Positions 125 to 17,393 of a DNA stretch of 18,094 nucleotides are shown here, piece by piece (positions within the stretch are counted from its first letter, which is position 1; every line of letters begins with the position of its first letter). The notes under the pieces were generated by a model. It made no database searches. It was not told the DNA's origin and saw nothing but the letters and a program-made list of their open reading frames with translations. The stretch is from Candidatus Bathyarchaeia archaeon. Its GTDB lineage: Archaea > Thermoproteota > Bathyarchaeia > Bathyarchaeales > Bathycorpusculaceae. The stretch lies in the NCBI GenBank assembly GCA_049512075.1, contig JBEKXL010000034.1:1-18094 (forward strand), written 5' to 3'. The position numbers were made by a program, and so were the translations under genes.

Positions 125-517
125 AATGGAAGCAACTACGAAGCGATAGTTTCCCCGGTTCTTCTCGGGCCTGCTATTGCGGAATTGTCACTTTGCTTGT
201 GGCTTTTGCTGAAAGGTGACCAGGAATGAGTCTATCTGCGATGAAAGACAGAATTGCTCGCCAACAATCTCGACACTGATGAAATGATTGCACATTTGCC
301 ATCAAAGAGCTCATGTGCAGTTGTGTCCGCTGAATATTGATGCCGTCATTAAGGTGGTTGACTTCGAGCCGAATCTAGAGGGCAGGCTTCACTTACCAAA
401 GGATATCGATGCCATTGGCTGATACATAACAAAGCACAAATGCTTGCGAGTCCTATTCTATGATCGTCTGAGATTTGTGACCTAGGCCCCTCTGTGGGAA
501 CCATGATTCAATAGTGG

Positions 518-536
518 TTCTCGGCGGCCGCACCAC
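518..536 (+). repeat. tRNA-Gly 3'-end-like sequence (att-like relic)
   Basis: TTCTCGGCGGCCGCACCAC. The 15-mer CGGCGGCCGCACCAC (522-536) recurs exactly at 13631-13645 and resembles the archaeal tRNA-Gly end ...ATCCCGGCGGCCGCACCA. Confidence 0.6.
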
Positions 537-671
537 TCTAGCATTTACTACTGAGGATTCAGGAAAACCAGGGCGCCAGGAGATTTCATATTGTGGAAAC
601 GATAATAGGCCTGAGCTCGACAAAGCTCGATCGATCCCCACACGCTCTTGAACGCAGCCGGGGGTCAAGTC

Positions 672-1505
672 ATGTCCACAATACCTGATGCACTGAAAGA
701 GATTGTAGTTTTCATCTTCATCAAAGGCTCAGGAGGCGAGGATGAAGCCATCGGAACCGGTTTCTTTGTGGGCGTGGTAGACAAGCATAGGAAAAAAGGC
801 GCCTTCCCATACCTCGTCACGGCAAGACACGTGTTAACTGATCGACAAGGTCGATACTACCCTGACATCTATATCAGAATGAACAAGATTTCAGGAGGAT
901 CAGAAATCATCCGGGTGCCTCTTTCCGGAGAGGGTGCTCTGCCAATCTACAAACACGTTGACGAAAAGGTCGACATCGTTGTTCTGCCTGTGAGGCCAAG
1001 GGATGATGTCTATCAATACAGAGTGCTCACTGACAACATGATAAGCACAAGAGAACAATTTGTCGAGGCGGGGATTAGGGAAGGCGACGAAGTTTTCTTC
1101 ACAGGTCTTTTTGCTTCATTCTTTGGTGCGGAAAGAAACTATCCCGTAGTGAGATTCGGTCGAGTGGCAATGCTGCCTCAAGAGCGAATCCCTTGGAAAG
1201 GTGAGATGCTTAGTCTCTATCTGATTGAGTGTCAGTCATTTGGGGGTAATAGCGGATCGCCCGTATTCTTCTATCTTGGCGTTGCGAGAGATCCGTTGTC
1301 TTTCATTTGGAGCGGGCCCAAATTCCTTCTTATGGGCATCATGAAGGGAAGCTTCTTGGAACCGAATGAGGTTCAGCTTGTCGATAGAAGTCGCATCCCC
1401 GTCTCTTTCGAGAATGCTGGAATCGCAGCAGTTGTTCCCGCCTATTATCTACACGAAATTCTCTTTTCGGAGGAGCTGAAAAGGGCACGAGCATCCGCCA
1501 AGTGA
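672..1505 (+). CDS. Trypsin-like (S1 clan) serine protease, no signal peptide
   Basis: Motifs GTGFFV, LVTARHV (His), DIVVL (Asp) and GGNSGSPVF (Ser). ATG 672, after GGGGGT, is preferred over TTG 648. Confidence 0.85.
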   Translation: MSTIPDALKEIVVFIFIKGSGGEDEAIGTGFFVGVVDKHRKKGAFPYLVTARHVLTDRQGRYYPDIYIRMNKISGGSEIIRVPLSGEGALPIYKHVDEKVDIVVLPVRPRDDVYQYRVLTDNMISTREQFVEAGIREGDEVFFTGLFASFFGAERNYPVVRFGRVAMLPQERIPWKGEMLSLYLIECQSFGGNSGSPVFFYLGVARDPLSFIWSGPKFLLMGIMKGSFLEPNEVQLVDRSRIPVSFENAGIAAVVPAYYLHEILFSEELKRARASAK

Positions 1506-1617
1506 TTCTCCTGTATCTGCGTCGCCTGAGTCGGTCCTGGTCGAAGAACTAGGGTACGCACACGGAAGGTTGGTCGTTCATCGCAGGATCCTTACAGCTC
1601 GCCCATCCCTTTCGGAG

Positions 1618-1787
1618 AATCTTGAACCCGTCCAGAACCCTAAACAGGAGACAAAAGGGTATGCCATTTGAACCTACTGGTATCTTTGAAGGTTTTCAGT
1701 TTCAAAGATTCTTTCAAAGATTTTTGAACTTGAGCACTTGCCCAGAACCTTCGAAGAATCTTCGAGAAATCTTTGAGGAATCTTGAA
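1618..1787. repeat. Phased array of AATCTT(T/C)GA-like boxes in both orientations
   Basis: TTCAAAGATT at 1701 and 1713 (12-bp period). Opposite-orientation AATCTTCGA 1757, AATCTTTGA 1768 and AATCTTGAA 1779 (11-bp period). Further copies at 1618 and 1682. Confidence 0.65.
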
Positions 1788-1833
1788 TATTGTTAAGATT
1801 CCACGGGCTCTGTTCGCTAGTCGGCGGGTTTAG

Positions 1834-2049
1834 GTTTCTGTTCGGTTTCAGCAGCTTTGGCGCTTTGAGCAATTAGAGACTTCCATCGGTTCTGCCCAAG
1901 ATTCAAGTCAATACCAGAAGGAGTTAGTAAGCACGAAGCCAGATATCAAGTGGAAGAAGATAGGTCGCTACCGATTATTTTCGAAAAAGAAGCGAGGGAG
2001 AAGTGAGGCTGAATTGAACAGAAATTGGAAATTGGATGCTAAAAGGTGA
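1834..2049 (+). pseudogene. Possible winged-helix protein remnant
   Basis: Stop-free frame with no start codon upstream of the segment ELVSTKPDIKWKKIGRYRLF, which resembles the wing of small archaeal wHTH proteins. Confidence 0.25.
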
Positions 2050-2058
2050 GAAAGAGAG

Positions 2059-2166
2059 ATGAACCATAGGAAACTAACGCTAATCGTTGCCGTGGTTCTT
2101 CTCGCTACTACACTGCTCTTTGCTCGTTCACCAAACGCTTACGCTTGGGACGCATCCAAAGTCTGA
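2059..2166 (+). pseudogene. 35-aa ORF that is almost only a Sec signal peptide (truncated secreted protein)
   Basis: AGGTGA RBS. MNHRKLTLIVAVVLLATTLLFARSPNAYA-WDASKV*: basic N-region, hydrophobic core, AYA cleavage site. Confidence 0.55.
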
Positions 2167-2274
2167 AATCCTTGCAAGTGAACTAGCATAGTGGCTTCCT
2201 GAGATTCACGGCCTGCCCGCATAGAGTTCACCGCCTGCCTGTTTGAAGTCAAAAGCAAGAGAGGAGGTGAGCAA

Positions 2275-2565
2275 GTGAAGTTCATAGGGTTCTGGGAGTA
2301 CAGCTTTGAGGACACTGACAAGGTTCTAGAGAAGTTCATGAAGATGACTGCGGAAAGGGAGAAGGGGACGGAGAAGTTTCCGAAGCTAATCTTTGGACCT
2401 TATCATATCGGTGGGGAGAGCAAGGGCTTCACAATATACGAAACTGATGACATCGACCAACTCACGAACACCACGATTCACTACATGCCCGAGATGAAGT
2501 GGAAGTTCGTACCAATACATGAAGCTAGCAAAGTTGCAGAACTATATCTGAAAAGCAAAAAGTAG
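2275..2565 (+). CDS. DUF3303-like small ferredoxin-fold protein
   Basis: Strong RBS GAGGAGGTGA before GTG. The pattern MKFIGFWEY...GPYH.GGE.KGFTIYET...Y.PEMKWKFVPI is typical of DUF3303. Confidence 0.75.
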   Translation: MKFIGFWEYSFEDTDKVLEKFMKMTAEREKGTEKFPKLIFGPYHIGGESKGFTIYETDDIDQLTNTTIHYMPEMKWKFVPIHEASKVAELYLKSKK

Positions 2566-2800
2566 CTAGAAAAGTTACATGGCTGTATGCCTGTCCCAAT
2601 CCCACTTTCTTCTAAACTCCGGTGCGCCGATGAGGGGCGCAATGACAGGCAAATACCCAAACCGGGCATGGCGAGAAAAAGGACTTGAGTCGATTGGCAA
2701 ACACAAAAGGGCATATGATAAGTCTCGTTACTAGATTGCTTATCCTGACAACACAGAAAGCCCGCTTCGTTATTGGTCTAAGTACATGGAGGTTCGTTCA

Positions 2801-3097
2801 GTGAGAGGGTGCTCGGGATGCACTCGTGACGGGAATTGCCCTCTTCAAGAAATGGGAACGAAAACAAACAGAATCTGTAGATGGCGTGTCGAAAAGCTAG
2901 AGGCGCAATGCTAACCCAAGGGTATCGTGGCCGCCGTTACCGTATCTATTTCAGTGGTGACGGCGATTCTTCTGATACAGAAGTTCGGAGCGACGTGGAA
3001 TGTTGTTCCCGTAATGGTTTTTGCAATCATTGTTCCCGCAACACTCGCAATAGCAATCAACTATCTGCGTTGGCGTCCACGATACAGGGTGCTCTGA
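2801..3097 (+). pseudogene. Cys-rich N-terminus plus two-TM protein split by one in-frame TAA (or two small ORFs)
   Basis: GGAGGT RBS, GTG 2801: MRGCSGCTRDGNCPLQEMG...ICRWRVEKLEAQC*(2912-2914). The same frame continues PKGIVAAVTVSISVVTAILLIQKFGATWNVVPVMVFAIIVPATLAIAINYLRWRPRYRVL* (3097). Confidence 0.45.
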
Positions 3098-3438
3098 AGA
3101 GACATCCGCCGATGCCGAACAACTCCAAAGAACAGCCATAAACCGAACAGAGCCTGTCTCTCCAGAGGTCGTTCAGGACGACGCTACTCTTGTCCTGAAG
3201 AGCCGCGAAAATCGTTGCGCCTTGGGCCTAGACCTGCTCGTAACGCTCAACTAGTGTCAGCGTCCTTCCCGTGGACGATCGCCTGAGAAATCGCTCCTGG
3301 GCGGGCGGACTTGGTAAGGAGCGACGACCCTCAAACTAGGCTACCAACCAACATGCCGGCCCAGAACTGCTCAGCCAAGCGCTCTCTTTCTTCAGAGGGA
3401 CGAGCCTGATGTAATACTCACTTCTGTTTGCTTTTCGC

Positions 3439-4173
3439 TCAGGCTCGTGACTCGTATTCTTCAGCGCGTGCCTCGATGAATTCTTTCACTTTCTCTTCAC
3501 TGAACTTCCTGGCTTCCCGTTGCTTCTGTAGCTGTCCCTTGATTTTTCGCAGCAGGTCTTCCATGGCGTATGGTTTCACAATGTATCCGTCGGCGCCGCG
3601 GTGTCTGGTCTCAAACGCTTCTCTAACATCATCGATGTGTGAAATGACCAGTATCTTCTTAAATCGTTGTCTCAGCGCCTGCAGGATTTCGATTGTGGCT
3701 CTTCTTCCCTCCTCATCAAGCGCTCCGAATCCTTCATCGATCACCAGTGTTTCGATTCTGCCCCTGTAGCCGCTTCTCCTAGTGATAGCTTCAGATACGC
3801 CCAGGCGCAGGGCGAGGTTGATTCGCATTCTCTCCCCACCTGAGTAGCGGCTCACGGGATGGCTTCTGCCTTGGTCAACTGCTTCAACGATTAGTTCCTC
3901 GGTGACTTTCCCTGTCTTGGTCTTTCTGCCGAACTTGAAGTTGATGTCCATTCTGCCGTTGGAGAGGTCCCTGAGTATCTTGGAGGCTTCCTGCTCAATC
4001 TCCGGGACAATCTCGATTAGAAGAGCCGTGGGGATACCGTCCTTGTGAAATATTTCCTTCTCAAGCAGCTCGTATGCCGTTCTGATTCTTTCCTTGTCGC
4101 CCATCTGCTCGACGAGCTCTTTGTGCTTGACCTTTGTCAGTTTGATTTCGTCTAGGTCTTCCTTGGCTGATAA
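3439..4173 (-). pseudogene. Chimera: C-terminal Rad50/SbcC ATPase half fused to the C-terminal end of a response-regulator receiver
   Basis: Contains the signature YSGGE, Walker B/D-loop LVIDEGFGALD and H-switch VISH, but no Walker A half (frame open only to 4173). From about 3600 it reads GADGYIVKPY...KFSEEKVKEFIEARAEE, a receiver beta5/alpha5 tail. Confidence 0.8.
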
Positions 4174-4487
4174 CTAACCATCAGGGCAGTCTTCCAAGAA
4201 ACTCTCGCCTAGATTTCCAATTGCCACTTGACACAGCACCTCTACAATATTGGGTCATGGGAAACGTCTCAGGTTCAAACTGCTTGAATGACCACTTTTC
4301 TAGGTGTTTCATCGGGACCATTTGCCAGTTGACGGACCACCTCTGCAATCACCAGAGCTTGCGAAATGCCCACTTGCCGTTTTACATGCTTTCTTTGTAG
4401 TACGCTCTCACACCTGCAAGTGGTCCTGAATAGCTTGCGAGGTTCCTCTCGCCGTGGAAAAATGTGCCGTAGCTTTCTTACTCCATC

Positions 4488-5306
4488 CTATGTCGGCCCG
4501 GGTAGCCCGAGAGCCATCTCGTCAAGCTCTCGAAGAATTTTCTCCTTCGTCGGCTTGTCACACCTCTTAAGCAGCCGAATGATGGAGTGGCGAACGTAGC
4601 TCTCGATCGTTTGAATATCGTTATCGCTAACTCTAGGTTGGACCCCATGCACGATTTGGCTACGCAAGTCATATAGTTCGCGCATTCGCTTCGCGATTTT
4701 CAGTCGTTCTTGCGGGGTCTCACCGAGCATCCACGCGGCTCTAACAGAGAGTTTGTGTCGCAGTGCTGAGTCGGAGTACAAGGCTTCCAGCGCTATCATC
4801 CAGTTGACGAGAGATTCTTCTGGCCGCGTCGATGATTTCCCGAAATTGTAGTAGTCTATTGCCAGTCGCAGATGAAGGTACTCGCTCTTGTCGAGTATCT
4901 CCTCGTTGTCCCGAAACAGAGTTGTCGCATCAGTGAGCAAGGCAACTCGCTGTTCCTCTGATAGCGTAGGCTTGAGGCGAATGGTTATCGTTCCAGAGAC
5001 GCTAGTAAGGAAACCCGTTCCAGCAACCTGGTTTGCACCCTCATCTCTCTCAATTCCCGCTGCGACCTGAGCAAGGACGTTGTATAGTGATAGAAAGCTG
5101 ATGAGCTGCTTTCTCGACTTGTCCACAGGATCCTCCGTGCGTGGAGACACCGTGACCTGGACCGAGGCGCGAACCCTCGAATTATCTAGTCTTTCAAACG
5201 AAAGCCAGCTCGGACCAGCCACCGCACCTGTTGGGATAAGCAACCCCGCTACAATGAAGTTGGCTTTCCATCTCTCAACTGTCGATGCGTCTTCACTCAT
5301 ACTCAT
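4488..5306 (-). CDS. ApeA-like HEPN domain protein (putative defence RNase)
   Basis: LAIDYY...ESLVNWMIALEALY...LSVRAAWMLG...RELYDLRSQIVHG, an Apea-type HEPN with intact RxxxxH. Confidence 0.8.
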   Translation of the reverse strand: MSMSEDASTVERWKANFIVAGLLIPTGAVAGPSWLSFERLDNSRVRASVQVTVSPRTEDPVDKSRKQLISFLSLYNVLAQVAAGIERDEGANQVAGTGFLTSVSGTITIRLKPTLSEEQRVALLTDATTLFRDNEEILDKSEYLHLRLAIDYYNFGKSSTRPEESLVNWMIALEALYSDSALRHKLSVRAAWMLGETPQERLKIAKRMRELYDLRSQIVHGVQPRVSDNDIQTIESYVRHSIIRLLKRCDKPTKEKILRELDEMALGLPGPT

Positions 5307-5454
5307 TCTAACAACCGCGATCTGGCGAAGAAGAAGGCGAGAACCTGGAATATGAGGACTTGCTACAAGAAGGTGGAGGAATTTCCTAACAACCCCTCTT
5401 TCGGATTCCGTTGAGTTCGTGTGACTTTCTCTATCTAGGCAATCCTGTCATGCA

Positions 5455-6243
5455 TCAAGTGTAACTCGTCGAAATCCAAGGCTTCAGCTCGTGAGCGAAC
5501 TTGGCGAATTCAGGAAATATCAGTAGCGAGGAGTGCGCAGTCTCCGAAGTGACAGGATCCAAGCTTGTGGGATGTCCGGCGTCGTTTCGCGTCATGCGCA
5601 GTTGTCCGCTGAACGATTGCCAAAACGACTCGTAGGATTCCTTGAGACGCGTACCCATGGTATTCTTGCGGTTGTCCAGCATCTTGGTGAGCTCATCGAA
5701 GACCTGCTTGATTCGCCAATCAAGAAGACTTGCTGACGGCGTTTGCCCTAGCGCTCTGATTCTTGTGACAATGCTGTCTCGAAGCTCAAGGACTATGCTC
5801 TCGGCGGCAGCTCCGATCATGACAGCTGTGGCTCTGTAGCAATCTGAGTTGTACGTCTTGAGCGCCTCAGATACGTAGGACTGGGCAACCGAGCTTAACG
5901 TGCATACTTGCGAGAGATATTTGGTGTAGCCATCCGGATTCGCTGGATCCCGACTGAGTGTTTCGAGCGTTTTTCTTCCGAGTGCGGTAACATGACAGAA
6001 AGGTGGCTCTGGGTTGGAAATATTGTAGCCCCAAGCAATCTGTCCGTTCCGGAACAGGTCGTACCAGACCGTCAGCGCGGCCTGTTCAAGCTCGTGGTTT
6101 CCCTTGATCCCTAAGACCTTGGAAGCTTCCTCTAGGACAACCCTAGGCTGGAGACTCGACGTACCCGCGTACTTGCTGACGATTTCCAACAAGACTCTTC
6201 GTATCGCATTGTGGTCAATCTGCATTTTTTCCTCTCCTGACAT
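5455..6243 (-). CDS. wHTH-like N-terminus plus DUF4145/Abi-type HEPN domain protein
   Basis: GGAGGTGA RBS before ATG 6243. N-part ends FCHVTALGRK (wing-like). C-part has EALKTY...YRATAVMIGAAAE...RMTRNDAGHP (RxxxxH). Confidence 0.75.
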   Translation of the reverse strand: MSGEEKMQIDHNAIRRVLLEIVSKYAGTSSLQPRVVLEEASKVLGIKGNHELEQAALTVWYDLFRNGQIAWGYNISNPEPPFCHVTALGRKTLETLSRDPANPDGYTKYLSQVCTLSSVAQSYVSEALKTYNSDCYRATAVMIGAAAESIVLELRDSIVTRIRALGQTPSASLLDWRIKQVFDELTKMLDNRKNTMGTRLKESYESFWQSFSGQLRMTRNDAGHPTSLDPVTSETAHSSLLIFPEFAKFAHELKPWISTSYT

Positions 6244-6382
6244 TGATCTCACCTCCCTTCAATCCCGTTCATGTAGCTGTTCAGCAGAGAAAGCAGTGAA
6301 CTCCACACAGGCAGACCGTGAATCTCGGAAAGCCAGTAGACTATGTTGGTCGTTCAGGATTTCAGACTTTGGGTCAGGAGGG

Positions 6383-6410
6383 ATTGTTAGGGGAGTCTTT
6401 GCCTAACGAT
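6383..6410. promoter_or_regulatory. Dyad ATTGTTAGG-N10-CCTAACGAT between the divergent HEPN and integrase genes
   Basis: 9-bp inverted repeat with one mismatch. Related CTAACAACC boxes at 5308-5316 and 5386-5394. Confidence 0.3.
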
Positions 6411-6450
6411 TGGAGGCGTCAGGATCACGAGAGGAGTTGGACTCGTTTTG

Positions 6451-6472
6451 TGAGTGTGGAAATCATGGTGCG
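6451..6472 (-). repeat. CGCACC-N8-CACACACA family site upstream of the integrase
   Basis: Minus strand reads CGCACC ATGATTTC CACACTCA, the same spacing as the copies at 13638 and 13731. Confidence 0.5.
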
Positions 6473-6694
6473 CACACACACCAAATCAACGGCTCAAATT
6501 CGAAGTCCGCGTCAACGAAGTCCGCGCAACATTCAGGTTCCCCGAACACAACCTGCCCAAATTGCGTGAGATTGCGAACAACTGGGCTGAACGAGGCTAC
6601 ATCAACGCGAAGCACTTGCTCATGCGGATTCACCTACAGAAAGAGAAATCAGCTCGTTTGCCCATTTCAACGATCAGCCAGCAAGGGGCCTTCA

Positions 6695-7662
6695 ATGGAT
6701 CCCATTGAAAGATGGCTTTCCTCGTACGACAATGAAGATAGCCGAATCAGACGTAGGAGAGCGCTTGAACGATTCTCGAAATGTGTCGGTACGCCTCCTG
6801 AAGTGCTGCTTGAGAGAACGCGCGACCAGACACGTTCGGGGCCCCCGAAGGATGCCGAAGATGCGTTGATGAAGTTCTACACCGACATGAGAAACCGCGG
6901 TTTGGCTCGCACCAGCAGGCTGCAATGGGTGAACGTCATTCGTGGTTTCTTCTCAAAGAATGGTGTGCACTTGGCTCCACTTCCTCAACTGAAATCGAGC
7001 GGTCATCCGTCGCCGAGGATACTCATAGTATCCCTTTCAGTCAGAAAGATGTCAAGAGAATGATCAAGTTGACGACCGCCAAAACGCTTGGTTCACTTAT
7101 CGCACGCCGTAACAGAGCTGTGATCGCTTTTCTGGCGCAGACGGGACAAAGAGAAAGCGTCCTAGCGGGGATAACATGGGAAATGATACAGCGAGGCAAA
7201 AGGATCGCACTCGGTCATCGAGATCGATCCCATGCCGTTATTGAGATCGGCCCTGAATTTCCGAAGAACAAACTGCGTCAACGGTACCGATTCGTGATAG
7301 GGTCGAATGCCTTGAAACTCATGGAAAAACTACCGCGCCCGCACGTCGGGAGGGTATTCAAGACTGCCAAAGGCAAGGATAAGATGGCGGTGAGGACGAT
7401 CGCGCGTATCGTAGATGAGGCCGCAGACACCTGCGAAATTCAGTATGAGACCGAGCGGACATTTCGAGGTTGGATGTGGCATGGGGTTCATCCGCATGTA
7501 TTCCGACGATATTGGAAACGGCAGATGAAGTTAGGAGGGGTGAATGACAAGGATCTATTAGAGTACATGCTCGGTCACCGTGTGACCGCGTATGACGCAT
7601 GGACGGACGCTGACTTGCTCAGTAACTACAAGATGGCAGAGCGTAAACTTGCGGTGCTATGA
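6695..7662 (+). pseudogene. Tyrosine recombinase/integrase split by a frameshift near 6985-6995
   Basis: The frame from ATG 6695 gives an N-terminal core-binding domain (MDPIERWL...ALERF...IRGFFSKNG). The -1 frame carries catalytic TGQR, K (PKNK), HVFR, LGH and Y (AYD). Confidence 0.85.
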
Positions 7663-7683
7663 TGACAATGGGAAGTCAAGTTA

Positions 7684-8379
7684 GTGATTGCTTCTAGGGA
7701 CTGGAAGGACCTCGCTGCGAATCCTGAAGCGTTCGGTGAAGCTGAGAAGAAAATCTATTCGACGTTGGAGCCCATCTTATGTGAACTGTTAGATGAACTG
7801 AAGACAAACAACAGGATCGAGACTGTGTATGTGAATGCCGAACTGGATGACTTGAGGGTTGTCGTACACTCTCTGGAAGACTGCGGGAGAAGCTACAATC
7901 TGATCTTGAATGCCACCGACAGCCACGAGAAAGCTATGAACTTCACCCAGGCACTCACGCCCTTCGGGTTCGACAATGTATCTGCATTCAACTTGCTCAT
8001 CCAGGTAGGCGTCCTTGGTACGATACTATCAACCGAAATGTTCAGGACAACCCTGCTATTTCATTCCAAAGGCCTCAAGCCGACTGCAACGATTGGTGAG
8101 CTGCTGAGGGAGCTGCAAAACGACGACGGAGCACCCAAAGCCGTTGCTAAACTCAGGCCATACCTCGACCTCAACTTCCGCAACGCTGTCGCCCACGGAA
8201 TGTTTGGGCTCCAAGGAGACAAGATCGTGCTTTACAAGAACGCAAAGTTCGAGATTTTGGAAAAACTGACCTTTGCTGATTTCATGATTCGATCGAAGAA
8301 GCAGAGCGTGTTGACGCACTGCCTGATCAATGTAATCGTGGAGAAAAAACGAGCGGGATTCTTCATGGAAGGAACCTAG
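7684..8379 (+). CDS. HEPN-motif protein (putative RNase)
   Basis: C-terminal TIGELLREL...LDLNFRNAVAHG (RxxxxH). Lies 21 bp after the integrase stop, same strand. Confidence 0.7.
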   Translation: MIASRDWKDLAANPEAFGEAEKKIYSTLEPILCELLDELKTNNRIETVYVNAELDDLRVVVHSLEDCGRSYNLILNATDSHEKAMNFTQALTPFGFDNVSAFNLLIQVGVLGTILSTEMFRTTLLFHSKGLKPTATIGELLRELQNDDGAPKAVAKLRPYLDLNFRNAVAHGMFGLQGDKIVLYKNAKFEILEKLTFADFMIRSKKQSVLTHCLINVIVEKKRAGFFMEGT

Positions 8380-8429
8380 GACTTGCCCTCAACCTCCCTC
8401 GTAGCGTTGCAGGACCCGAATGGTTCTGA

Positions 8430-8648
8430 CTACCTCCGACTCTCAGAAAACCCACTTGTGTCGGCCTTTAACCGGCTGAGATTTTCCTCGTAGGGTAGCA
8501 TCTTTATTGTGTCGGGGTCGAATGAGAGTCTCTTCCGACATTTCGGGCAGCTCCCGTTGTATCGCAGAATTATCTCAGAAGGTGATTCGAGCTCGAGTCC
8601 ATCGTAGAGGACGGCGCCGCATGCGTCACAGAAAACATGTTGAGGCAT
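8430..8648 (-). CDS. Small Zn-ribbon protein
   Basis: MPQHVFCDACGAVLY...GSCPKCRKRL: two CxxC pairs, typical of small conserved TACK proteins. Confidence 0.8.
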   Translation of the reverse strand: MPQHVFCDACGAVLYDGLELESPSEIILRYNGSCPKCRKRLSFDPDTIKMLPYEENLSRLKADTSGFSESRR

Positions 8649-8823
8649 TCCAGCAGCTCTTCAGTCAGAAATTGGGAAGTGAGCCTCATATCAGGATATT
8701 GGCCCCGCCGACGCTTGATGAATCACTTCTTGGCTCCAGTTAACCGGCTGCGAGAGGCCACAAAAGTGGCGGGGCAAGCGTTGGCTTTCTGAAGGGCGCG
8801 GGGGTCATGCAACGCGGATGGAG

Positions 8824-8865
8824 GACGTAAATTTCGACGCCCGCACCATGAGACCCCACACACAC
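8824..8865 (+). repeat. tRNA-3'-end-like family site
   Basis: GACGTAAATTTCGACGCCCGCACCATGAGACCCCACACACAC aligns without gaps to 13676-13707 (AAATT.CGACGC.CGCACCA.GAGACC). Confidence 0.7.
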
Positions 8866-8951
8866 GAGGATCCATCTAGACAAGTTGATTCTCTATGCTT
8901 CACTTGGCATGCGATAGCCTTGCTTGGGAAAAACGACTACTAGGAAACCGA

Positions 8952-9692
8952 CTATTCACATGTCTCTATTCGTATTCGTCCATCTTTGTTCACTATCGCC
9001 AACTTCCTGTTTCCAAGAGGCTTCCAGGGTGCACTCCAAATCCTCTCCTGGCAGAATACTACACCGCTAGGCGACTCGAAGTAGTACATTGTGTAGTAGT
9101 CTTCCTCCTCTGTGAAATCTCTGAGAACGTAGAGGGATTCGCCATCTGACAGCATGAACGTTAGTGATGAGTAGGTTCTGCCCTTTTTGTCCGGCTCGCG
9201 TAGAATCTCCTCATGAATCAGTCCTACGTTCTTCGCAATGGCCTGCTCGATCGAGGATTCGCTCTCTTCAATTGCCCTCGCGAGCTTGTCAAGAACGACT
9301 CGGCTGTCTGATTGGACGCCGCCAGTATTGAAGCTGGGCGAGTATACTGTGCCGTTATGCCCAAAGCTCCATTTCCCAGAGACGAGTGGCTGAGTGTTCT
9401 CTAAGGATACCGCTCCAGAAGACGTCTTCCTGAGGTGCGCCAAGACAATTCGGTCCGTATTTGTGATTTTTTCGCAATCCAACCTGTACTCCCCGTTCTT
9501 CCAAGCGGGCTCTGTAGACCTGCCTAGGTACTCGGGCGAGTTGTTTCTGTAAGACAAGATCCCCCAGCCGTCCTCATGACCTGGCTGCGCGCCTGTCCTG
9601 ACCTTTCCACATGCGGAAAGGCATCTGAACTTCAGAAGAAGATCTGACTTCTTGATGGAAGAGTCGCCAATGATTGCCATCATCCGGCACAT
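8952..9692 (-). CDS. Class II (Ntn) glutamine amidotransferase, YafJ/EgtC-like
   Basis: True start MCRMM (Cys2 nucleophile) at 9692. Motifs HEDGWG, AHLRKTS, ENTQP, FGHNG and SDS. Confidence 0.9.
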   Translation of the reverse strand: MCRMMAIIGDSSIKKSDLLLKFRCLSACGKVRTGAQPGHEDGWGILSYRNNSPEYLGRSTEPAWKNGEYRLDCEKITNTDRIVLAHLRKTSSGAVSLENTQPLVSGKWSFGHNGTVYSPSFNTGGVQSDSRVVLDKLARAIEESESSIEQAIAKNVGLIHEEILREPDKKGRTYSSLTFMLSDGESLYVLRDFTEEEDYYTMYYFESPSGVVFCQERIWSAPWKPLGNRKLAIVNKDGRIRIETCE

Positions 9693-9766
9693 TGTTCTCT
9701 TACACCCTACTAAGGAAGGTTGCAGCGGATTTACCTTTCCGAATCGCTTTCCCATACACCGGTGTT

Positions 9767-10060
9767 CTAACTACTCAGAGTGGAATCCCCTCTAACACCG
9801 TTTTCATTGGAAAGAAGCCTATCATGGCGTATGTTACAGCACTCATGATGCAATTGACCAGTGGCAGCAATGAGGTTTCAATCAAAGCGAGAGGGCGAGC
9901 CATATCAGCAGCCGTCGACGTCGTTGAAGTGTGCAGAAGACGATTCTTCGAAGGCAAACTTCACGTGGAGAAAATCACTATCGGAACCGAGCAGCTGGGT
10001 GAGGAAGGACAAGTGCGAAACGTCTCAACGATCGAGATCACGGTGACAAAACGAACCTAG
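9767..10060 (+). CDS. albA: DNA/RNA-binding chromatin protein Alba
   Basis: NTVFIGKKPIMAYV, IKARGRAISAAVDVVEV, IGTEQL, RNVSTIEI. Start uncertain: no ATG/GTG/TTG near the expected N-terminus. Confidence 0.93.
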   Translation, partial: LTTQSGIPSNTVFIGKKPIMAYVTALMMQLTSGSNEVSIKARGRAISAAVDVVEVCRRRFFEGKLHVEKITIGTEQLGEEGQVRNVSTIEITVTKRT

Positions 10061-10125
10061 CGGCCACCCAGCACAACAGAGCCCCCAGTTCCATTGTACG
10101 ACAAACGTGACCGGGCTCGGGATTA

Positions 10126-10692
10126 CTAGTAGGTTATGAGTCCCTTCTCTTCAAGTGCTTCCTTCAGTTTTGCGATGGCTCTGGGTACTTCTGCTTCTTT
10201 CTTGGCGCCTGTACACACTAGTTTTCCGCTGGCGAAGATGAGTATGACTACTTTGGGGTCGTCCATTCTGTAGATGAGGCCAGGGAATTGTTCCGGCTCG
10301 TACATCGTCCTCTTCAGCGAGTAAATTACTTTTTCTAGGTCGATGCGGCCTCCCAGCCCAGCTGAGGCTACTATGTTCTGGACCTGGATTTCCGGCTTTG
10401 CAAGGATGACTATGCCGCCCCTCTTGAGTTCGTCGACAACCTTCGTGACGGCCTTCCTCGCTTGACTCTCGGACTTCGCTCCGGTACACACCATCTTTCC
10501 CGAGCTGAAGATCAGTGTCGCGGTCTTCGGCTTCTTCAGCCGGTACACGAGTCCGGGGAACTGCTCAGGCCTATATTCGACGCCAGGAAAGATCCGGACA
10601 ATCGCGTTGAGATCTATCCTCTGGTTGAGTGTGGCCGACGCGACGACGTTCTCTATGTTGATGTACGCGTCGTTTTTGGCCAGAGGGCGCAC
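10126..10692 (-). CDS. tbp: TATA-box binding protein
   Basis: Two TBP repeats: IENVVAS/VQNIVAS, Y.PEQFPGL.YR and LIF.SGK.VCTGAK. The real start is probably CTG at 10683. Confidence 0.98.
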   Translation of the reverse strand: MRPLAKNDAYINIENVVASATLNQRIDLNAIVRIFPGVEYRPEQFPGLVYRLKKPKTATLIFSSGKMVCTGAKSESQARKAVTKVVDELKRGGIVILAKPEIQVQNIVASAGLGGRIDLEKVIYSLKRTMYEPEQFPGLIYRMDDPKVVILIFASGKLVCTGAKKEAEVPRAIAKLKEALEEKGLITY

Positions 10693-10789
10693 CTGAGTGA
10701 TACTTGAGGTGCGCTTTATGAAGGAAGCCTATATGAGCACGGTTTGCGGAGCACGCGAGAAGTTCCTGAACCCTTGATTGAGCGCGATT

Positions 10790-10832
10790 GGCCGCACCAT
10801 GAATGGTGTCGTCGTTGAGGTCTCTTGGTGCG
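10790..10832. repeat. Inverted pair of CGCACCA family sites upstream of tbp
   Basis: GGCCGCACCATGA at 10790-10802 on +, and CGCACCAAGAGACC on - (10832-10819). Same arrangement as the pair at 13694-13731. Confidence 0.55.
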
Positions 10833-11055
10833 CGACGACGAGCCTATCGTCTTTCCTAGAGGTTGCAGCGCCTCTTTTGAGGCATGTCACGGTATCATGT
10901 CAACCAGACCGGAGTGTAGCTAGGATCATGTGCGGGCGCGCTTAAGAACCAAAACTGCCTAAACAGGCGCTTTCGACAGCCCGTCGTTGACAGTGATCAC
11001 ATACTGAACTCTCAAATCGCCGCTAACGCTTGTACGCTGTCCGAGGTAAGTCTCT

Positions 11056-11274
11056 GTGAGTAAGCGGAATCCGTTGACTGAGCCAAGCATCATTGTTGAT
11101 GATGTGCTTTCCATGTTGACTGGACGCCCGAGGGGCACGCTTGTAAGTTTCACTGAGATCACAAAGAACGTCCACGACTACATCAAGACAAAGGGCTTAC
11201 GGAAGAGATTCTGTCCCCATTGCAATGCACCATTGACCCCTTCAGAGCCAATGCAGGCTACGATACCCGGTTAG
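11056..11274 (+). CDS. SWIB/MDM2-like mini-protein with a C-terminal CxxC
   Basis: GAGGT RBS and GTG start. VDDVLSMLTG....LVSFTEITKNVHDYIKTKGLR resembles SWIB 'L..I.G.....RTEV.K..W.YIK...LQ'; then FCPHCN. Confidence 0.6.
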   Translation: MSKRNPLTEPSIIVDDVLSMLTGRPRGTLVSFTEITKNVHDYIKTKGLRKRFCPHCNAPLTPSEPMQATIPG

Positions 11275-11365
11275 GAATGCGCAGTATTGATGGCGGGCCT
11301 TGCTCAAACTGGGGCGAATGGCAGTCATTGCAGGACTTTGATAACTAGGACGTGTGTGGCAAAAT

Positions 11366-11710
11366 ATGGGTGCGGCTCAATCCGTCTTGAAGAAGATCCT
11401 ATCGATTCCGCCCCATAGAACGGACCGAAAACCACCACGCATGTTTTCTGGCCGAGACCCAGACCTCCTCGCAATAGCTGAGATAGAGCATCGAAGGAGG
11501 TTGGACGCGGAGCGAAGCTTGGAGAGCGTGTTCGAAAAGGTGAAACCTATACTCCAAAGGAAGCCAGAGCCAGCATATCTTGTCCACGCTTTAGAGTTGC
11601 CGGCGGATCTCAAGACGCGAATCGCGGCCATGCCCGACCCCGAGGAGAGAATGCGTGCCATTGTAGAGTACAAGTTGTCTACAAGAACGCAGTCGAGCCA
11701 TCACCAGTAG
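11366..11710 (+). CDS. Hypothetical helical protein
   Basis: 114-aa charged ORF co-oriented with its neighbours; no recognisable motif. Confidence 0.55.
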   Translation: MGAAQSVLKKILSIPPHRTDRKPPRMFSGRDPDLLAIAEIEHRRRLDAERSLESVFEKVKPILQRKPEPAYLVHALELPADLKTRIAAMPDPEERMRAIVEYKLSTRTQSSHHQ

Positions 11711-11887
11711 AGTATCGGAGGCGGTCTCTTGTCTTTGCCCGTTCGGTCTGTAGCAAGCGGATTGTCTCGAGTCTTGGCGATGGCTCTTCGAAGCCTCGGA
11801 GAATACGATCGACTGCTTCAACCGTTGAGGGAGAAAGCTTCAAGCCGATCCTCGTGTGCATCTCGTGATGATCTGCGGTGACATGAA

Positions 11888-12391
11888 GTGGTGAACTTCT
11901 GGATCTTTCCGACCACCGCGGAACGCTGGGAACTAGTCAGAACCTATAACGTCTACGCCTTCCAACATGAGGCAGACAGAGACAAGATCAAGCCAGGTGA
12001 CAAGACAATATGCTACATCGTCCGATCGGATCCGCCAGTATTCGTCGGCGCGCACGAAATCGCGAAGCCTTGGGAGGAGGCGAAGGAACCATTCTGGCCC
12101 GAGGAGAAGGCTGAGGGCAGAGTAATCCGGCCTTGGCGGTTCCAGTTGACTCCGCTGAGGCTTGGCGCCGTCGACGCTCGCAAGCTATCGAGGCAGCTCT
12201 CCTTCGTCAAGAACAAGGATTGGTGGTCAATATACTTGAGAGGCTCGCTCGCGAATTTTGGGCGGCGGATTCCGGAAAGCGATTACCGACTCATCTTCGA
12301 GGAGATGCCTAAGCCGTCTATCCCCTACCAGGTGAGACCAGCCCTCAAGCCTAAGGTGCCGTCGGTCGCCGAAGTTCCAAAGAGGAGCTGA
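11888..12391 (+). CDS. EVE (PUA-like) domain protein, C-terminally truncated
   Basis: NFWIF....RWELV...NVY, KIKPGDKTICY, FWPEE, LSFVKNK..WSIYLRG and IPESDYRLI. GGTGA RBS. Confidence 0.85.
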   Translation: MVNFWIFPTTAERWELVRTYNVYAFQHEADRDKIKPGDKTICYIVRSDPPVFVGAHEIAKPWEEAKEPFWPEEKAEGRVIRPWRFQLTPLRLGAVDARKLSRQLSFVKNKDWWSIYLRGSLANFGRRIPESDYRLIFEEMPKPSIPYQVRPALKPKVPSVAEVPKRS

Positions 12392-12559
12392 ACCCTTCCT
12401 AGTCACCACAGAGAAGTTTGAGGATGAAACCAGAAGCCTACTCGTGGAACATTCCACGAGATCAAGCCCCACATCAGAATCATCCACTGGGAGGACATCG
12501 TCGGGCTCTACAAACTTGTGAGAGAGGTCAGCGAGTTCGAGAAGAAACTAAGGCCATAG
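12384..12559 (+). pseudogene. Frameshifted C-terminal tail of an EVE-associated restriction-endonuclease-like domain
   Basis: Reads GAEPFLVTTEKFEDETRSLL, then after a shift GTFHEIKPHIRIIHWEDIVGLYKLVREVSEFEKKLRP*. Out of frame with EVE; no catalytic core visible. Confidence 0.55.
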
Positions 12560-12617
12560 CCGAAGACCCGGTCTCAGGTCTTCCGTTTCTCCCTCTCCAG
12601 CTCCTCGCGTAAGCGCT

Positions 12618-12773
12618 TCAGCGCATAGTTGAGGTTTCCGCCCCCAAGTCTTCGGCAACCATCGAGGAAACGACGGATTACGCATAGAAGACCTCCCTGA
12701 GCTTGAAATTGACAATGAGCACAAGAAGGTCACATTCAAGCTCATTCCAACACGTGTGATAGTTCGCGAGGAA
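12618..12773 (+). pseudogene. Internal fragment of a second archaeal tyrosine integrase
   Basis: SAHS*GFRPQVFGNHRGNDGLRIEDLPELEIDNEHKKVTFKLIPTRVIVREE matches the archaeal integrase segment 'AHSGLRP..LGNY.G.DGL...DLPE......F...PT...VR.E' around the catalytic Arg. Confidence 0.7.
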
Positions 12774-12791
12774 TCCCCGTCAGATAGTGCG

Positions 12792-13136
12792 TTAATTCGC
12801 AAGCCACTCGCAGACCGAAATCAATTTCTTCAGCAGCACGTCCTTCAGCCGACCTTGCGGTCGGTCATTCCAGATTGCTATGGAGTGAACGTGAACGCGG
12901 ATCACGTTAGGCATCTCGCCAAGCCAGACACGCCGTAGCCGACAAGACGAGCAGCTCAGATGAAAGCGGTGTAGATTCAGTCCACAGAGGGTTTGGCAGG
13001 GCATCCCGAACGGGCCCGCCCTCTTAGCTGCGAATTGCTTGGGAACGTGGATGCCGAGCCACCCTTTCCCGTGCTCATCGGCAAAGAACCGTGTGAGTTG
13101 TCCAAAGTCTACTGTGAGGTGATCCACAGGCTTCAA
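12792..13136 (-). CDS. Hypothetical Cys/His-containing protein
   Basis: 114 aa, AGGAG before TTG; CQTLC...H..H..CSSC. No competing gene over most of its length. Confidence 0.4.
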   Translation of the reverse strand: MKPVDHLTVDFGQLTRFFADEHGKGWLGIHVPKQFAAKRAGPFGMPCQTLCGLNLHRFHLSCSSCRLRRVWLGEMPNVIRVHVHSIAIWNDRPQGRLKDVLLKKLISVCEWLAN

Positions 13137-13380
13137 CGACTCCTAACTCTTCAGTTGATGCTGTGAGACGGAAAAGTCTTGCCTGTCAAATAGAGCAAGG
13201 TTAGAGGTTAGCCCTCGTTTTACCGTCAGATAGTGCGCTCAACCAGCAGGAGATGAACATTGACGAATAGCTGAACTTCTCAGCTCTGGAGGAACTTTCG
13301 CTGTAGTTGACAATTGAATGAAGATGTGTTCTTGGCTAACGTGCAGAATCTCGGGAGGCGCCTGGTCCCCCGTGACCTTA

Positions 13381-13421
13381 CACGTGGACTTCCACGTCCC
13401 CCAAACCACATCCACGTGGAC
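13381..13421. repeat. CACGTGGAC direct/inverted repeat cluster
   Basis: CACGTGGAC at 13381 and 13413, inverted TCCACGT at 13391, palindrome TCCACGTGGA at 13411-13420. Confidence 0.55.
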
Positions 13422-13458
13422 ACGAAAAACAGCGCTTTATGTAATATCCCCGGTCAGC

Positions 13459-13749
13459 TGGTGCGGGCGGATAAATTTGAACCCTTGGTGGTGGGTGGTG
13501 GGTAGGCCGGTGCGGGCGTCATAATTTGAACTCTCGTGAGAGACAGCAATTTGAAGTGGGAGGGTTTTCCGCGCGGTGTGTGTCGTTTCAGGTAATGTGT
13601 GTGGTTTTGAACCTGAATGGGTATAGATCCCGGCGGCCGCACCACCTTCCTCACACACATCAAACCAAAACCGACGGTTCAAATTACGACGCTCGCACCA
13701 CGAGACCTGTGTGTGTGGGTCTAGCGGTGCGAGCAACGTATTTTGAACC
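13459..13749. repeat. Cluster of five tRNA-3'-end-like sites including a 74-bp cruciform (attP-like)
   Basis: 24-mers GGTGCGRGC-N6-AWTTTGAACY-like at 13460, 13509 and 13726, inverted at 13676, plus GGGTATAGATCCCGGCGGCCGCACCA at 13619-13644. Confidence 0.8.
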
Positions 13750-13750
13750 A

Positions 13751-13903
13751 ATAGGGGAAGATGACCTACCAACGCGCACAGAGGTACTTAGGCGCATTAG
13801 GGAGAAGGAAGCGGAGCAAGCGCAAGGCCATATGGCCCCACTTCCACCGGGAGACTTCAACATTATTTATGCTGATCCACCTTGGCAGTATCTAGCTAGT
13901 TGA
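13751..13903 (+). pseudogene. Fragment of an MT-A70-family adenine methyltransferase
   Basis: EDDLPTRTEVLRRIREKE...LPPGDFNIIYADPPWQY, then a stop three codons later; DPPW at 13874-13885. Confidence 0.75.
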
Positions 13904-14134
13904 TCGCTTCGGTTTCTTGTAAGTTCGGTATGCTTCTGCAACCTTCGGATCTAATGGCTTGAGTTCTGCTATAGACCACTCCCAAATCTCTACAGTTGTG
14001 GTTCCCTCTCTTACTTTGTCTGCAATCTTATCGGCAACTTTTGTTACATGTTCCTCTTTGGCTCCAGCCTTCTTCAAAGAAGTTTTTAGCTTAGCCTTGT
14101 CAAACTCCTCCGAACGCTTCTTCACTTTAACCAA
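13892..14134 (-). CDS. Stand-alone ATP-cone domain protein 1
   Basis: GAGGTGA RBS, TTG start. VKVKKRSEEFDKAKLKTSLKKAG...VADKI...TTVEIWE...EL...DPKVAEAYRTY. Confidence 0.85.
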   Translation of the reverse strand: MVKVKKRSEEFDKAKLKTSLKKAGAKEEHVTKVADKIADKVREGTTTVEIWEWSIAELKPLDPKVAEAYRTYKKPKRSTS

Positions 14135-14183
14135 CACAATCACCTCTCTCTTCGTTATTCTCTTGAATATTCACTTAAGAATT

Positions 14184-14405
14184 TTGGCCAAACTCATCAA
14201 AAGAGGAGATACCTACAAGGCTGAAAAGCTGAAGGGCTCTATCGTATCGGCCGGAGCAAGTTGCGACGTAGCTGACAAAATCGTCAGTTCCGTCAAGATT
14301 CGCGAGGCCATGTCAACCTTAGAGTTGAGGAGACAGGTCTCAGATCAGCTAAAGAAACTCGATCCCAAGGCAGCCAAGGCCTACGACACTTACAGGTCCA
14401 AGTAG
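14184..14405 (+). CDS. Stand-alone ATP-cone domain protein 2
   Basis: TTG 14184. KLIKRGDTYKAEKLKGSIVSAG...VADKI...STLELRRQV..QL..LDPKAAKAYDTY; clearly paralogous to the divergent gene. Confidence 0.8.
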   Translation: MAKLIKRGDTYKAEKLKGSIVSAGASCDVADKIVSSVKIREAMSTLELRRQVSDQLKKLDPKAAKAYDTYRSK

Positions 14406-14573
14406 TCATCCACCTTCTCGTTCTCTTTTTCTGGCATGTTGCTCTTTGCTGAGCGGAGCTTGGAAATGCTATTGAACATTCAAGTGCAAAGCCTGAAAGA
14501 GAGAGGCGGGTAGGCTACGAATGTCTGCTCATGTCAAGTCGCACTGAACGTGCGCTCGTAAGGAATAGTGTAT

Positions 14574-14774
14574 TTATCGTTCAACGGTGAAGGCTATCTT
14601 GACGTGGGCCTTGTATCTGGCAATCTTGCCATTCTTCACATCTGCTTTGAATCCCAGCACATCTACGCCAACGATGTTCCTCACAGTTTTCGCGGCATCT
14701 CTCAAGGCCTCCTGCACTGCGTCTTCCCAGCTCTTCTCAGAGCTCCCTATCAGTTCCAGTATCTTCACAGCCAT
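14574..14774 (-). CDS. Dodecin (flavin-binding) family protein
   Basis: 66 aa: MAVKILELIGSSEKSWEDAVQEA...A.KTVRNI...NGKI..YKAHVKIAF. GGTGG RBS. Confidence 0.92.
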   Translation of the reverse strand: MAVKILELIGSSEKSWEDAVQEALRDAAKTVRNIVGVDVLGFKADVKNGKIARYKAHVKIAFTVER

Positions 14775-15395
14775 ATGACCACCCGGATGCCAATTGTTCG
14801 AAATCTGTAGATAAGTCTTAGTGAGGTCACTACAGTTTGGAACAGGCGGCCGACCGCCCGCTTCTCCCCCATAATCAGCTTCTCCCACAAGACTATTCAG
14901 TTCAGGGCAAGAGATCGACGTGAACTTGGTTACGGAATAGGAAACACGATCGCTCTCGCCCAAAAAAACGCTGCTGAATGAGGAAAGCGCCGATGTATCT
15001 TGCACCACATCAAGTAGCGTGAGGGTCCAGCGCCCAACAATGAAGAACTGAGCCTACACCAGGACAAGTCATAGGTCTGCAAGAATCTGCTTTGATTCTG
15101 AGCGGAGCTTCATACAGTTACCCGCAGAAGGCAAAGTACATGTCATCTGTAGCCATTTTCAACCGATGTCTGTTCATCAGCTTCAAATCTGGCAAAACGG
15201 ATTCAGAATTCGACTCTTTGCGGGTTGTCGTGTCGTGTAGATCCGGAAATATCGCAAGTTGTCTTCATGTCAAAGACTTTCAGGCACTGAACCTGTCATA
15301 GTAGGTGAACGATGCAACGAATACTGTCAAGGTGCAATCGAAAAGAGATAGTTGTTTATGTAGTAGCGCGCGCGACGAAATTTCGGTAAATCATT

Positions 15396-17360: not shown

Positions 17361-17393
17361 CGGGTGAAGAGGCATCTCTCGATAAGGTGAAGG

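Follow-up and report, generated by a model that had tools for sequence, protein, structure and literature searches.

The window examined here, a stretch of 18,094 nucleotides that is the entire contig C34 of a 2.73-Mb archaeal metagenome-assembled genome (MAG; 86 contigs, here G000), carries a family of short sites built around the heptamer CGCACCA, which a family of casposon-like transposons probably uses as targets or has left as scars of insertion. They lie in and between genes that include a trypsin-like open reading frame (ORF; 648-1505), a tyrosine integrase (about 6695-7662) split across two frames, 6410-7063 and 6925-7662, with a Phage_integrase match for the latter (E 4e-7), and the genes for Alba (9776-10060) and TBP (10126-10692). 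Counting both strands, CGCACCA occurs ten times in the window (529+, 1124-, 6466-, 6908+, 8842+, 10793+, 10826-, 13459-, 13638+ and 13694+). A previous sequence-only reading had counted nine against about two expected, and the excess holds with the copy it missed (1124-) added: shuffled windows contain a mean of 1.97 and at most 8, and none of 200 shuffles reached ten. Assembly-wide the heptamer is unremarkable (209 copies per 2 x 2.73 Mb, about 1.4 per window, ranking about 12,500th among all 7-mers), and the excess in the window is therefore local; the most frequent 7-mer of the assembly is GCGCGCG/CGCGCGC, with 1775 occurrences. The CGCACCG variants reported in that reading also exist, but one base away from where it had placed them, at 13508(-) and 13725(-) and not at 13509(-) and 13726(-), and two further copies, 2620(-) and 16346(+), both fall within ORFs.

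Eight of the window's sites have common flanks beyond the CGCACCA core, and the elements that had been proposed as shared, an upstream leader, N-GAGACC and a CA-repeat, are each present at subsets of sites. A leader, GGTTCAAA(T/A)T-N5-GCY, begins 18 nt upstream of 13459-, 13508-, 13694+ and 13725-, and is reduced to a degenerate AAATTT at 8842. N-GAGACC follows the sites at 8842, 10826- and 13694, the general downstream pattern being NN-aGACC and then usually a CA-repeat, as at 6466-, 8842, 13638 and 13725-; at 6466- the upstream flank is a TG-repeat, making this a junction unit. The composite unit thus consists of an 18-nt leader, GGTTCAAATT-N5-GCY, resembling the T-loop and acceptor of a tRNA and often having ACGACG directly before it, a 14-nt target (T), CGCACCA-NN-aGACC, and (CA)n or (TG)n ends. 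The members of the family in the window, together with two bare heptamers, are as follows.

521..542, plus strand: tRNA-Gly-like 3' fragment and target T; 521-535 matches the tRNA-Gly end of a relative at 14/15 positions, T (529-542) reads CGCACCA-CT-CTAGC, and no CA-repeat follows.
1124..1130, minus strand: CGCACCA within the trypsin-like ORF, without family flanks; probably a chance match.
6445..6482, minus strand: junction unit, with a (TG)n end (6482-6473), T (6472-6459, CGCACCA-TG-ATTTC) and a CA-rich end (6458-6445).
6908..6914, plus strand: CGCACCA (within GCTCGCACCAGC) in the N-terminal frame of the frameshifted tyrosine integrase, without leader or CA-repeat; probably a chance match.
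8824..8865, plus strand: degenerate leader (8824-8841), T (8842-8855, CGCACCA-TG-AGACC) and CA-repeat end (8856-8865).
10793..10832, both strands: two facing T-like sites upstream of the TBP gene, 10793-10806(+) and 10832-10819(-), the latter CGCACCA-AG-AGACC.
13377..13483, minus strand: empty target, with leader (13483-13466), T (13465-13452, CGCACCA-GC-TGACC) and then a module starting GGGGATAT (13451-13377).
13501..13532, minus strand: second leader (13532-13515) and T (13514-13501, CGCACCG-GC-CTACC), in tandem with the 13377..13483 unit and 49 nt upstream of it.
13627..13659, plus strand: 18-nt copy of the tRNA-Gly(GCC) 3' end (13627-13644), overlapping T (13638-13651) and CA-repeat (13652-13659).
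13676..13749, both strands: head-to-head pair forming a palindrome of about 74 nt, with leader 13676-13693(+), T 13694-13707(+), a TG/CA run (13708-13717), T 13731-13718(-) and leader 13749-13732(-).

The unit is widespread beyond the window. An exact-pattern scan of species-representative genomes placed it at 117 loci at least, nearly all of them in MAGs labelled Bathyarchaeia or Bathyarchaeota, and a class-wide scan of 201 genomes found the motif in 21, from families f35, f26 and f27; in the same scan none of the 27 further genomes sampled from G000's own family had it, nor did any from its order. From 135 unique copies the consensus reads aaaACGACGGTTCAAATT-.cG.T-GCCCGCACCA-nnaGACC-CACACACA-aaa, and in a position matrix of T (268 sites) CGCACCA is invariant and is followed by two free positions and then a-G-A-C-C. 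Allowing up to two mismatches, there are 39, 28 and 13 copies in three long-contig genomes and 0 of the reversed pattern, and the copies are clustered within a few kb. In a second type of unit a TG-repeat stands where the leader would be, (TG)n-CGCACCA-NN-aGACC-(CA)n. In three f26 genomes (G125, G132 and G182) most copies read GCTCTCACCA in place of GCYCGCACCA, so the target there would begin CTCA and not CGCA; this form could co-vary with the Cas1 clade of these genomes.

The sites had also been likened to tRNA 3' ends, and it is tRNA-Gly that they resemble. The lineage's real tRNA-Gly(GCC) ends GGGTTCAAATCCCGGCGGCCGCACCA, the unit agrees with it at 21 of 26 positions, the first 7 nt of T are the last 7 nt of tRNA-Gly, and the window segments 521-535 and 13627-13644 are near-exact tRNA-Gly 3' fragments. 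We rejected the possibility that the units are themselves tRNA genes, true or split: they form no cloverleaf, there is no pairing between the sequences on either side of TTCAAAT, ARAGORN counts 0 tRNAs in the window and Rfam reports none, and variant copies at other loci (L148, L149 and L152-L154) are not tRNAs. ARAGORN misses the tRNA genes of L150, L151, L175 and G000:C15, which have long or multiple introns and some of which Rfam finds, and its tRNA counts (29 in G000) are therefore underestimates.

It is conceivable that such sites are transcription signals (promoters, operators or terminators) or small tRNA-like RNA genes, as 173 of 189 copies lie between genes, TTCAAATT bears a loose likeness to a TATA box, some units are followed by T-runs and TBP paralogues lie nearby. 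However, the copies show no orientation bias toward neighbouring genes (79/70 and 78/76), their distances from them are broadly spread, and they lie closer to gene 3' ends than to gene starts (medians 134-156 vs 303-344 nt), which argues against promoters or operators, and on these statistics we rejected a promoter or terminator; the suggestion that they might be operators of a single DNA-binding protein is not borne out, there being no fixed distance or orientation relative to genes. An RNA gene is in turn poorly matched by units with neither a cloverleaf nor T-stem pairing and with no Rfam or ARAGORN match, and the duplications and terminal inverted repeats described next are unexplained by any transcription signal, so that we regard this explanation as highly improbable.

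The segments between sites carry duplications that are specific to each pair. We compared the seven variable positions of T in 166 pairs of sites on the same strand, T+(CA)n ... (TG)n+T, separated by 150-15,000 nt. All seven positions are identical in 18 of the 166 pairs (one array supplies 3 of the 18, and these are not independent), compared with 24 of 699 other configurations at the same loci (Fisher p 3.6e-4) and 1.56% of inter-locus pairs (binomial p 2e-10). The 18 identical-flank segments are 0.6-9.4 kb long, the left T is preceded by a leader in 14 of them, and in 17 of the 18 perfect-flank segments listed both ends read CACACACA... inward, forming (CA)n terminal inverted repeats; other terminal inverted repeats are about 17 nt long and CCG-rich in L179 and about 50 nt long in element 1 of L118, and one more identical-flank pair lies in L186. 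Poly-C and CCG-rich ends may be variants of the CA end. Such (CA)n...(TG)n segments with identical flanks bear out the proposal that the sites are recombination targets with gene cassettes between them. At L118 the order is leader-T-2.4 kb-T-1.75 kb-T, with one T in common, an arrangement expected from repeated insertion beside the leader; for the flanks of this array we found no orthologous empty site and no match in five genomes. A second tandem unit lies just inside the leader-proximal end in 10 of 18 flanked segments, and at the other end in 2 of 18.

Most inserted segments are 0.6-4.3 kb long and carry one or two ordinary genes without Cas1. The KaiC-TPR cargo of a cassette in G001, a near-complete relative, has counterparts of 77-82% identity in G147 (four places), G234 (several places) and G163, and the cassette has different duplications in different places, being flanked by CGCACCAGCTGACC in G001 and by CGCACCATTAGACC in G147:C163. 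Empty and filled targets can also be set side by side: at window positions 13483-13377(-) and at a G001 locus the leader and T run straight into the GGGGATAT module, whereas at L174 the module follows the distal (right-hand) T of a 9.4-kb Cas1 element. This conserved module, about 75-85 nt long and with CACGTG-type palindromes, lies downstream of unoccupied targets at several loci (G001, G147, G188 and G157), and may be a promoter region or a small RNA.

Sites also coincide with breaks in similarity. Short homologies to relatives begin or end exactly at 535 (425/466-535), at 8842 (8842-8927) and at 13465. Upstream of the window's TBP gene, five paralogous copies are alike up to ...AGGTCTCTT and diverge inside the site 10832-10819, two of them with inserts of 0.9 and 2.5 kb, one with a TG-repeat junction unit, and one with an inverted site and a different right half. 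These breakpoints uphold the view that the sites mark module boundaries. Among G000's own relatives the TBP gene is the sole match in 40 of 41 genomes, and there is therefore no usable synteny there. The TBP paralogue expansion sits among transposon sites. In genus g101 the TBP gene is multi-copy at 77-96% identity (at least seven places in G147, several in G188, G163 and G001), Alba, the zinc-ribbon ORF 8395-8681 and 10946-11337 are likewise multi-copy, and the contig depth over the TBP region (9776-11337) is about 6-8x baseline.

The enzyme that accompanies the sites is a Cas1 homologue. When 846 ORFs from the 117 listed loci were clustered into families, no family dominated near the sites, and a Cas1 family appeared in 7 loci of 7 MAGs, full length (403-405 aa) or as fragments. 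Cas1 homologues of at least 47% identity occur in 9 of 201 genomes, namely 8 of the 21 that bear the repeat and 1 of the 180 others (Fisher p 3e-8, with kin among these genomes not independent), and G000:C37, the contig with the most repeats in the assembly, carries one of them. The Cas1 of L174 aligns over its full length, C-terminal extension included, to 6opm_A (E 5e-76), a chain of the M. mazei casposase and its best relative of solved structure, the next matches being Cas1 proteins of clustered regularly interspaced short palindromic repeats (CRISPR; E 5e-25 and weaker); 6OPM is cited in the paper on the casposase of M. mazei (PMC6977970). Among NCBIfam models the generic Cas1 model alone scores above its cut-off.

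Three Cas1 genes lie inside elements with duplicated flanks. The element at L174 is 9.4 kb long with flanks identical at 14/14 positions, and that at L179 is 10.96 kb long, again with flanks identical at 14/14, and carries HNH, TIR-domain and TPR genes between its CCG-rich ends. The third, on G000:C37, is about 4 kb long, and its flanks, CGCACCATGATACC and CGCACCATGAGTACC, differ by one indel; the first 41 or so residues of its Cas1 ORF (3251-4528) belong to an unrelated membrane protein, of which G147 has an intact copy, and this Cas1 has therefore been N-terminally truncated and fused by rearrangement. A fourth Cas1 locus, L175, abuts a paired T-arm/acceptor end, followed by 7 nt and (CA)n; the tRNA it abuts is, to judge from its bases, a candidate tRNA-Glu(UUC), for which Rfam makes no whole-tRNA call, and a search for the right end of the element found none. 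A generic repeat search for terminal inverted repeats around the Cas1 gene of L054 gave nothing convincing. Cas1 is the only gene that the elements have in common, and no Cas2 or other cas Pfam match was found beside it. The cargo beside Cas1 in L178, L179, L174, L175 and G000:C37 is often defence-like (AIPR, TIR-domain protein, DUF4365, HD-CE, YaaC-like and HNH).

The sequence-only reading had instead taken the sites to be attachment (att) sites of a tyrosine recombinase, reused in the manner of an integron or by serial integration at a tRNA gene, with the window's frameshifted integrase as the enzyme. The setting lends itself to such a reading, as the Phage_integrase-family ORF 6925-7662 lies beside junction unit 6466, inserted DNA is bordered, as by att sites, by direct repeats that derive from a tRNA 3' end, and in M. 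mazei a tyrosine-integrase element and a casposon occupy one tRNA site (PMC4779613). The integrase frame also contains GCTCGCACCAGC, at about codon 70 of its N-terminal part. SSV-type integrases have in-gene att sites, and GCTCGCACCAGC, although probably a chance match, may be such a site. Yet the window integrase was matched in only one of five repeat-bearing genomes searched, which holds the identical contig, and we rejected it as the enzyme on its absence from the other four; no integrase is present among the 62 ORFs of six repeat clusters in G001 or among the recurrent ORF families near the 117 listed loci, and with the XerA/integron-integrase model of NCBIfam the score is 28 bits, where 220 is the cut-off. 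An att core does not vary, and elements that integrate at one have no terminal inverted repeats, whereas here each element has its own version of the variable half of the flanking repeat, and inverted repeats form its ends: inverted ends with pair-specific 14-nt duplications are a transposon signature, not a fixed att core. AttC-like hairpins are absent, and the enzyme that co-occurs with the sites and lies inside three duplication-flanked elements belongs to the Cas1-family casposases. A tyrosine recombinase is thus a very unlikely author of these sites.

We therefore favour, with a probability of roughly three in four, the interpretation that the sites serve a casposon-like family of transposons in Bathyarchaeia as targets or are scars of its insertion. 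The proposed enzyme, a casposase of the Cas1 family that is kin to the family-2 casposon enzymes, would recognize two adjoining parts: the leader, whose 18 nt mimic the T-loop and acceptor 3' strand of tRNA-Gly, and the 14-nt target beginning CGCA. The ends of the element, (CA)n or, in some autonomous copies, a CCG-rich repeat, would be joined to the two strands 14 nt apart, and repair of the gaps would duplicate the target. The leader-proximal copy of T would remain a target, so that tandem arrays would accumulate, and cassettes without Cas1 would be moved in trans. What the sequences establish is the architecture of the units, their pair-specific duplications, the homology of the Cas1 and its co-occurrence with the repeat; its role as catalyst, mobilization in trans and the order of these events are inferred. 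The window itself would hold products only: one empty site, several leader and T units with solo ends, two tRNA-Gly 3' fragments, a junction unit, and a breakpoint hot spot upstream of a multi-copy TBP gene.

Several observations weigh against a casposon-like origin. The window contains no Cas1, not even a fragment by tblastn, and no intact duplication-flanked element. No PolB Pfam match was found among the ORFs (above 70-90 aa, within the Cas1 loci) of eight Cas1 loci (L054, L106 plus L042 and L109; L174 and C37; L178, L179, L173 and L175), so that one defining casposon feature fails and we use the name 'casposon-like'. In the M. mazei structure CGCA is read by two arginines, and the Cas1 here has T-H-Q where these align. 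Full-length Cas1 of the family is absent from four repeat-bearing genomes, G147 and G197 having fragments and G002 and G003 none, and G170 bears Cas1 without the leader pattern. As to the duplications, 148 of the 166 left-to-right pairs are imperfect in T, and across all adjacent site pairs, a test superseded by the end-aware one, identity of T is only weakly raised (NN equal in 20% vs 11%). Tandem leader and T units, with a period of 49-66 nt, have an identical T in 0 of 62 pairs and are unexplained by simple insertion, and no insertion polymorphism was seen at any one orthologous locus. In Logan contigs from peat and wetland metagenomes, joints at repeat units have short sides (21-61 nt) that are indistinguishable from paralogous loci or other organisms.

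Some of these points would suit a dispersed repeat of the repetitive extragenic palindromic (REP) or miniature inverted-repeat transposable element (MITE) kind, spread by another transposase or by replication slippage, with modules shuffled by homologous recombination and Cas1 as incidental cargo. Units do occur in tandem and in head-to-head clusters, junction units form (TG)n/(CA)n hairpins, insertion does not account for the tandem units, and intact Cas1 is missing from many repeat-bearing genomes. But the pair-specific duplications are 14 nt long, exactly casposon-sized, the leader with its CGCA target agrees with experimentally defined casposase targets as these are described in the cited casposon papers, Cas1 lies within three duplication-flanked elements, and no other transposase recurs near the listed sites. 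A repeat of this kind with Cas1 as a bystander is accordingly unlikely.

The contig itself most likely comes, on sequence comparison, from an f35 (genus g101) organism of the Bathyarchaeia and was mis-binned into G000, a recent transfer being an admissible alternative. Contigs C50 and C77 of G147 (family f35) match the window at 100% identity over 228-10353 and 10261-17491, the repeat is absent from G000's own family, and the contig is a compositional outlier: its GC content is 51.1% (C37, 49.5%) against 47.6 ± 1.3% in large G000 contigs, and its tetranucleotide correlation with the pooled G000 profile is 0.74 (C37, 0.73) against 0.83 at the 5th percentile of 18-kb chunks of large G000 contigs. 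Comparisons of the repeat were therefore made within the repeat-bearing lineages. In G000 the extended motif is confined to C34 and a few short contigs (C37, C45, C49 and C79), and is degenerate on C56; for these six this probably reflects mis-binning through repeat-fragmented assembly, and the few differently labelled MAGs among the 117 or more loci are probably binning errors too. Beyond the window's left end the G147 contig (L136, C50) runs into DUF4386 and alcohol dehydrogenase modules, and C37 has both, in the other order and beside Cas1. The practical warning is that these repeats break assemblies and that their contigs land in the wrong genome bins.

Two further features of the window stand apart from the CGCACCA units. 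A dispersed repeat of about 90 nt, unrelated to them in sequence, occurs at 6283-6372, 2152-2234 (inverted) and 15261-15346, and also in G147, G163, G188 and G197. An ORF fragment (13757-13903, ending ...NIIYADPPWQY) begins right after the leader at 13749 and stops early; it has no Pfam match, and its DPPW motif is typical of N6-adenine methyltransferases.

By definition casposons are large elements with Cas1 and PolB, and the lineages known to have them are few. In A. boonei the minimal casposase target is described as a 15-bp target site duplication and the adjacent 18 bp, which encode the TΨC loop of tRNA-Pro, with the duplication overlapping the tRNA end by 5 bp (PMC5137440), while in M. 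mazei the duplication is 14 bp, has an invariant 5'-CGCA, shares 4 bp with the end of tRNA-Leu and depends on 15-30 bp of tRNA sequence upstream (PMC4779613; PMC6977970). The unit described here, as far as its sequence can tell, matches that plan, an 18-nt T-loop-like leader followed by a 14-nt CGCA segment. The likeness to these family-2 casposons extends to a Cas1-type integrase of about 400 aa with a C-terminal extension, to a duplication (14-15 bp in theirs) that starts with CGCA over a tRNA end, to an upstream tRNA T-loop segment of about 18-30 bp, to tandem elements that share one duplication and solo terminal inverted repeats next to CGCA, both reported in M. mazei (PMC4779613; PMC6977970), and to an HNH gene in one element. 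In contrast to them, the elements here have no PolB in eight loci and hence are not self-synthesizing, their ends are di- or trinucleotide repeats, (CA)n or CCG-rich, their target mimics tRNA-Gly with a 7-nt overlap, their leader and target are dispersed beyond the tRNA gene at tens of copies per genome, most inserts are small Cas1-less cassettes, and the hosts are Bathyarchaeia.

Similar parallels and differences hold for other systems. As in CRISPR leader-repeat arrays built by Cas1-Cas2, a leader stands beside a short sequence that is duplicated, leader-proximally, with each insertion, in CRISPR by Cas1 and here presumably so; an analogy between casposon and CRISPR arrays was drawn before (PMC5137440). 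The repeat here is 14 nt, unlike the 24-47-nt repeats and 26-72-nt spacers of CRISPR, the inserts are 0.6-11 kb with inverted ends, and neither Cas2 nor effector genes stand beside Cas1. As in integrons, arrays of mostly single-gene cassettes between short recombination sites build variable regions, but there is no IntI-type integrase by an attI site and no attC hairpin, and the sites are duplicated targets with transposon-type inverted ends. Islands at tRNA genes built by tyrosine integrases, such as the tycheposons of Prochlorococcus, reportedly have partial tRNA 3' copies scattered through variable regions that accumulate cargo; the scattered copies are alike here, while the class of enzyme and the structure of the ends differ.

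A 2023 review lists four casposon families, all of them cas1-polB islands. In our literature search no paper paired casposons with Bathyarchaeia, and the one that names them alongside Bathyarchaeota mentions both separately (subscription papers, supplements and a survey of Asgard Cas1 lay outside its scope). What would be new here is a PolB-less casposase system that targets a tRNA-Gly mimic and has many small non-autonomous cassettes, although PolB-less Cas1 elements may have been described earlier. Going further, we tentatively propose, at somewhat less than even odds, that some Bathyarchaeia possess a PolB-less, casposase-driven gene-cassette system, in which a tRNA-Gly-like leader and a 14-nt CGCA target lie at tens of places per genome and a few Cas1 genes mobilize, in trans, tandem (CA)n-ended cassettes of ordinary or defence-type genes (KaiC-TPR, MarC, CBS and possibly the TBP and Alba paralogues). 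Such leader-repeat-insert-repeat arrays would be both a living analogue of the proposed casposon-to-CRISPR intermediate and an archaeal counterpart of the integron that works with a different enzyme.

A Cas1 related to those of the large casposons appears here to serve a far larger population of small Cas1-less cassettes, which lie in arrays next to the leader and have a 14-nt duplication in common. A target this short and clearly delimited lends itself to direct tests in vitro. If our interpretation is correct, casposons would extend to the Bathyarchaeia, an abundant uncultured class of soils and sediments, and a casposase would be able to work without an element-borne polymerase. The system would then offer a natural example of Cas1, a leader and a duplicated short repeat forming arrays, which bears on the origin of CRISPR, and would explain how variable regions and paralogue families such as that of TBP are assembled in these genomes.

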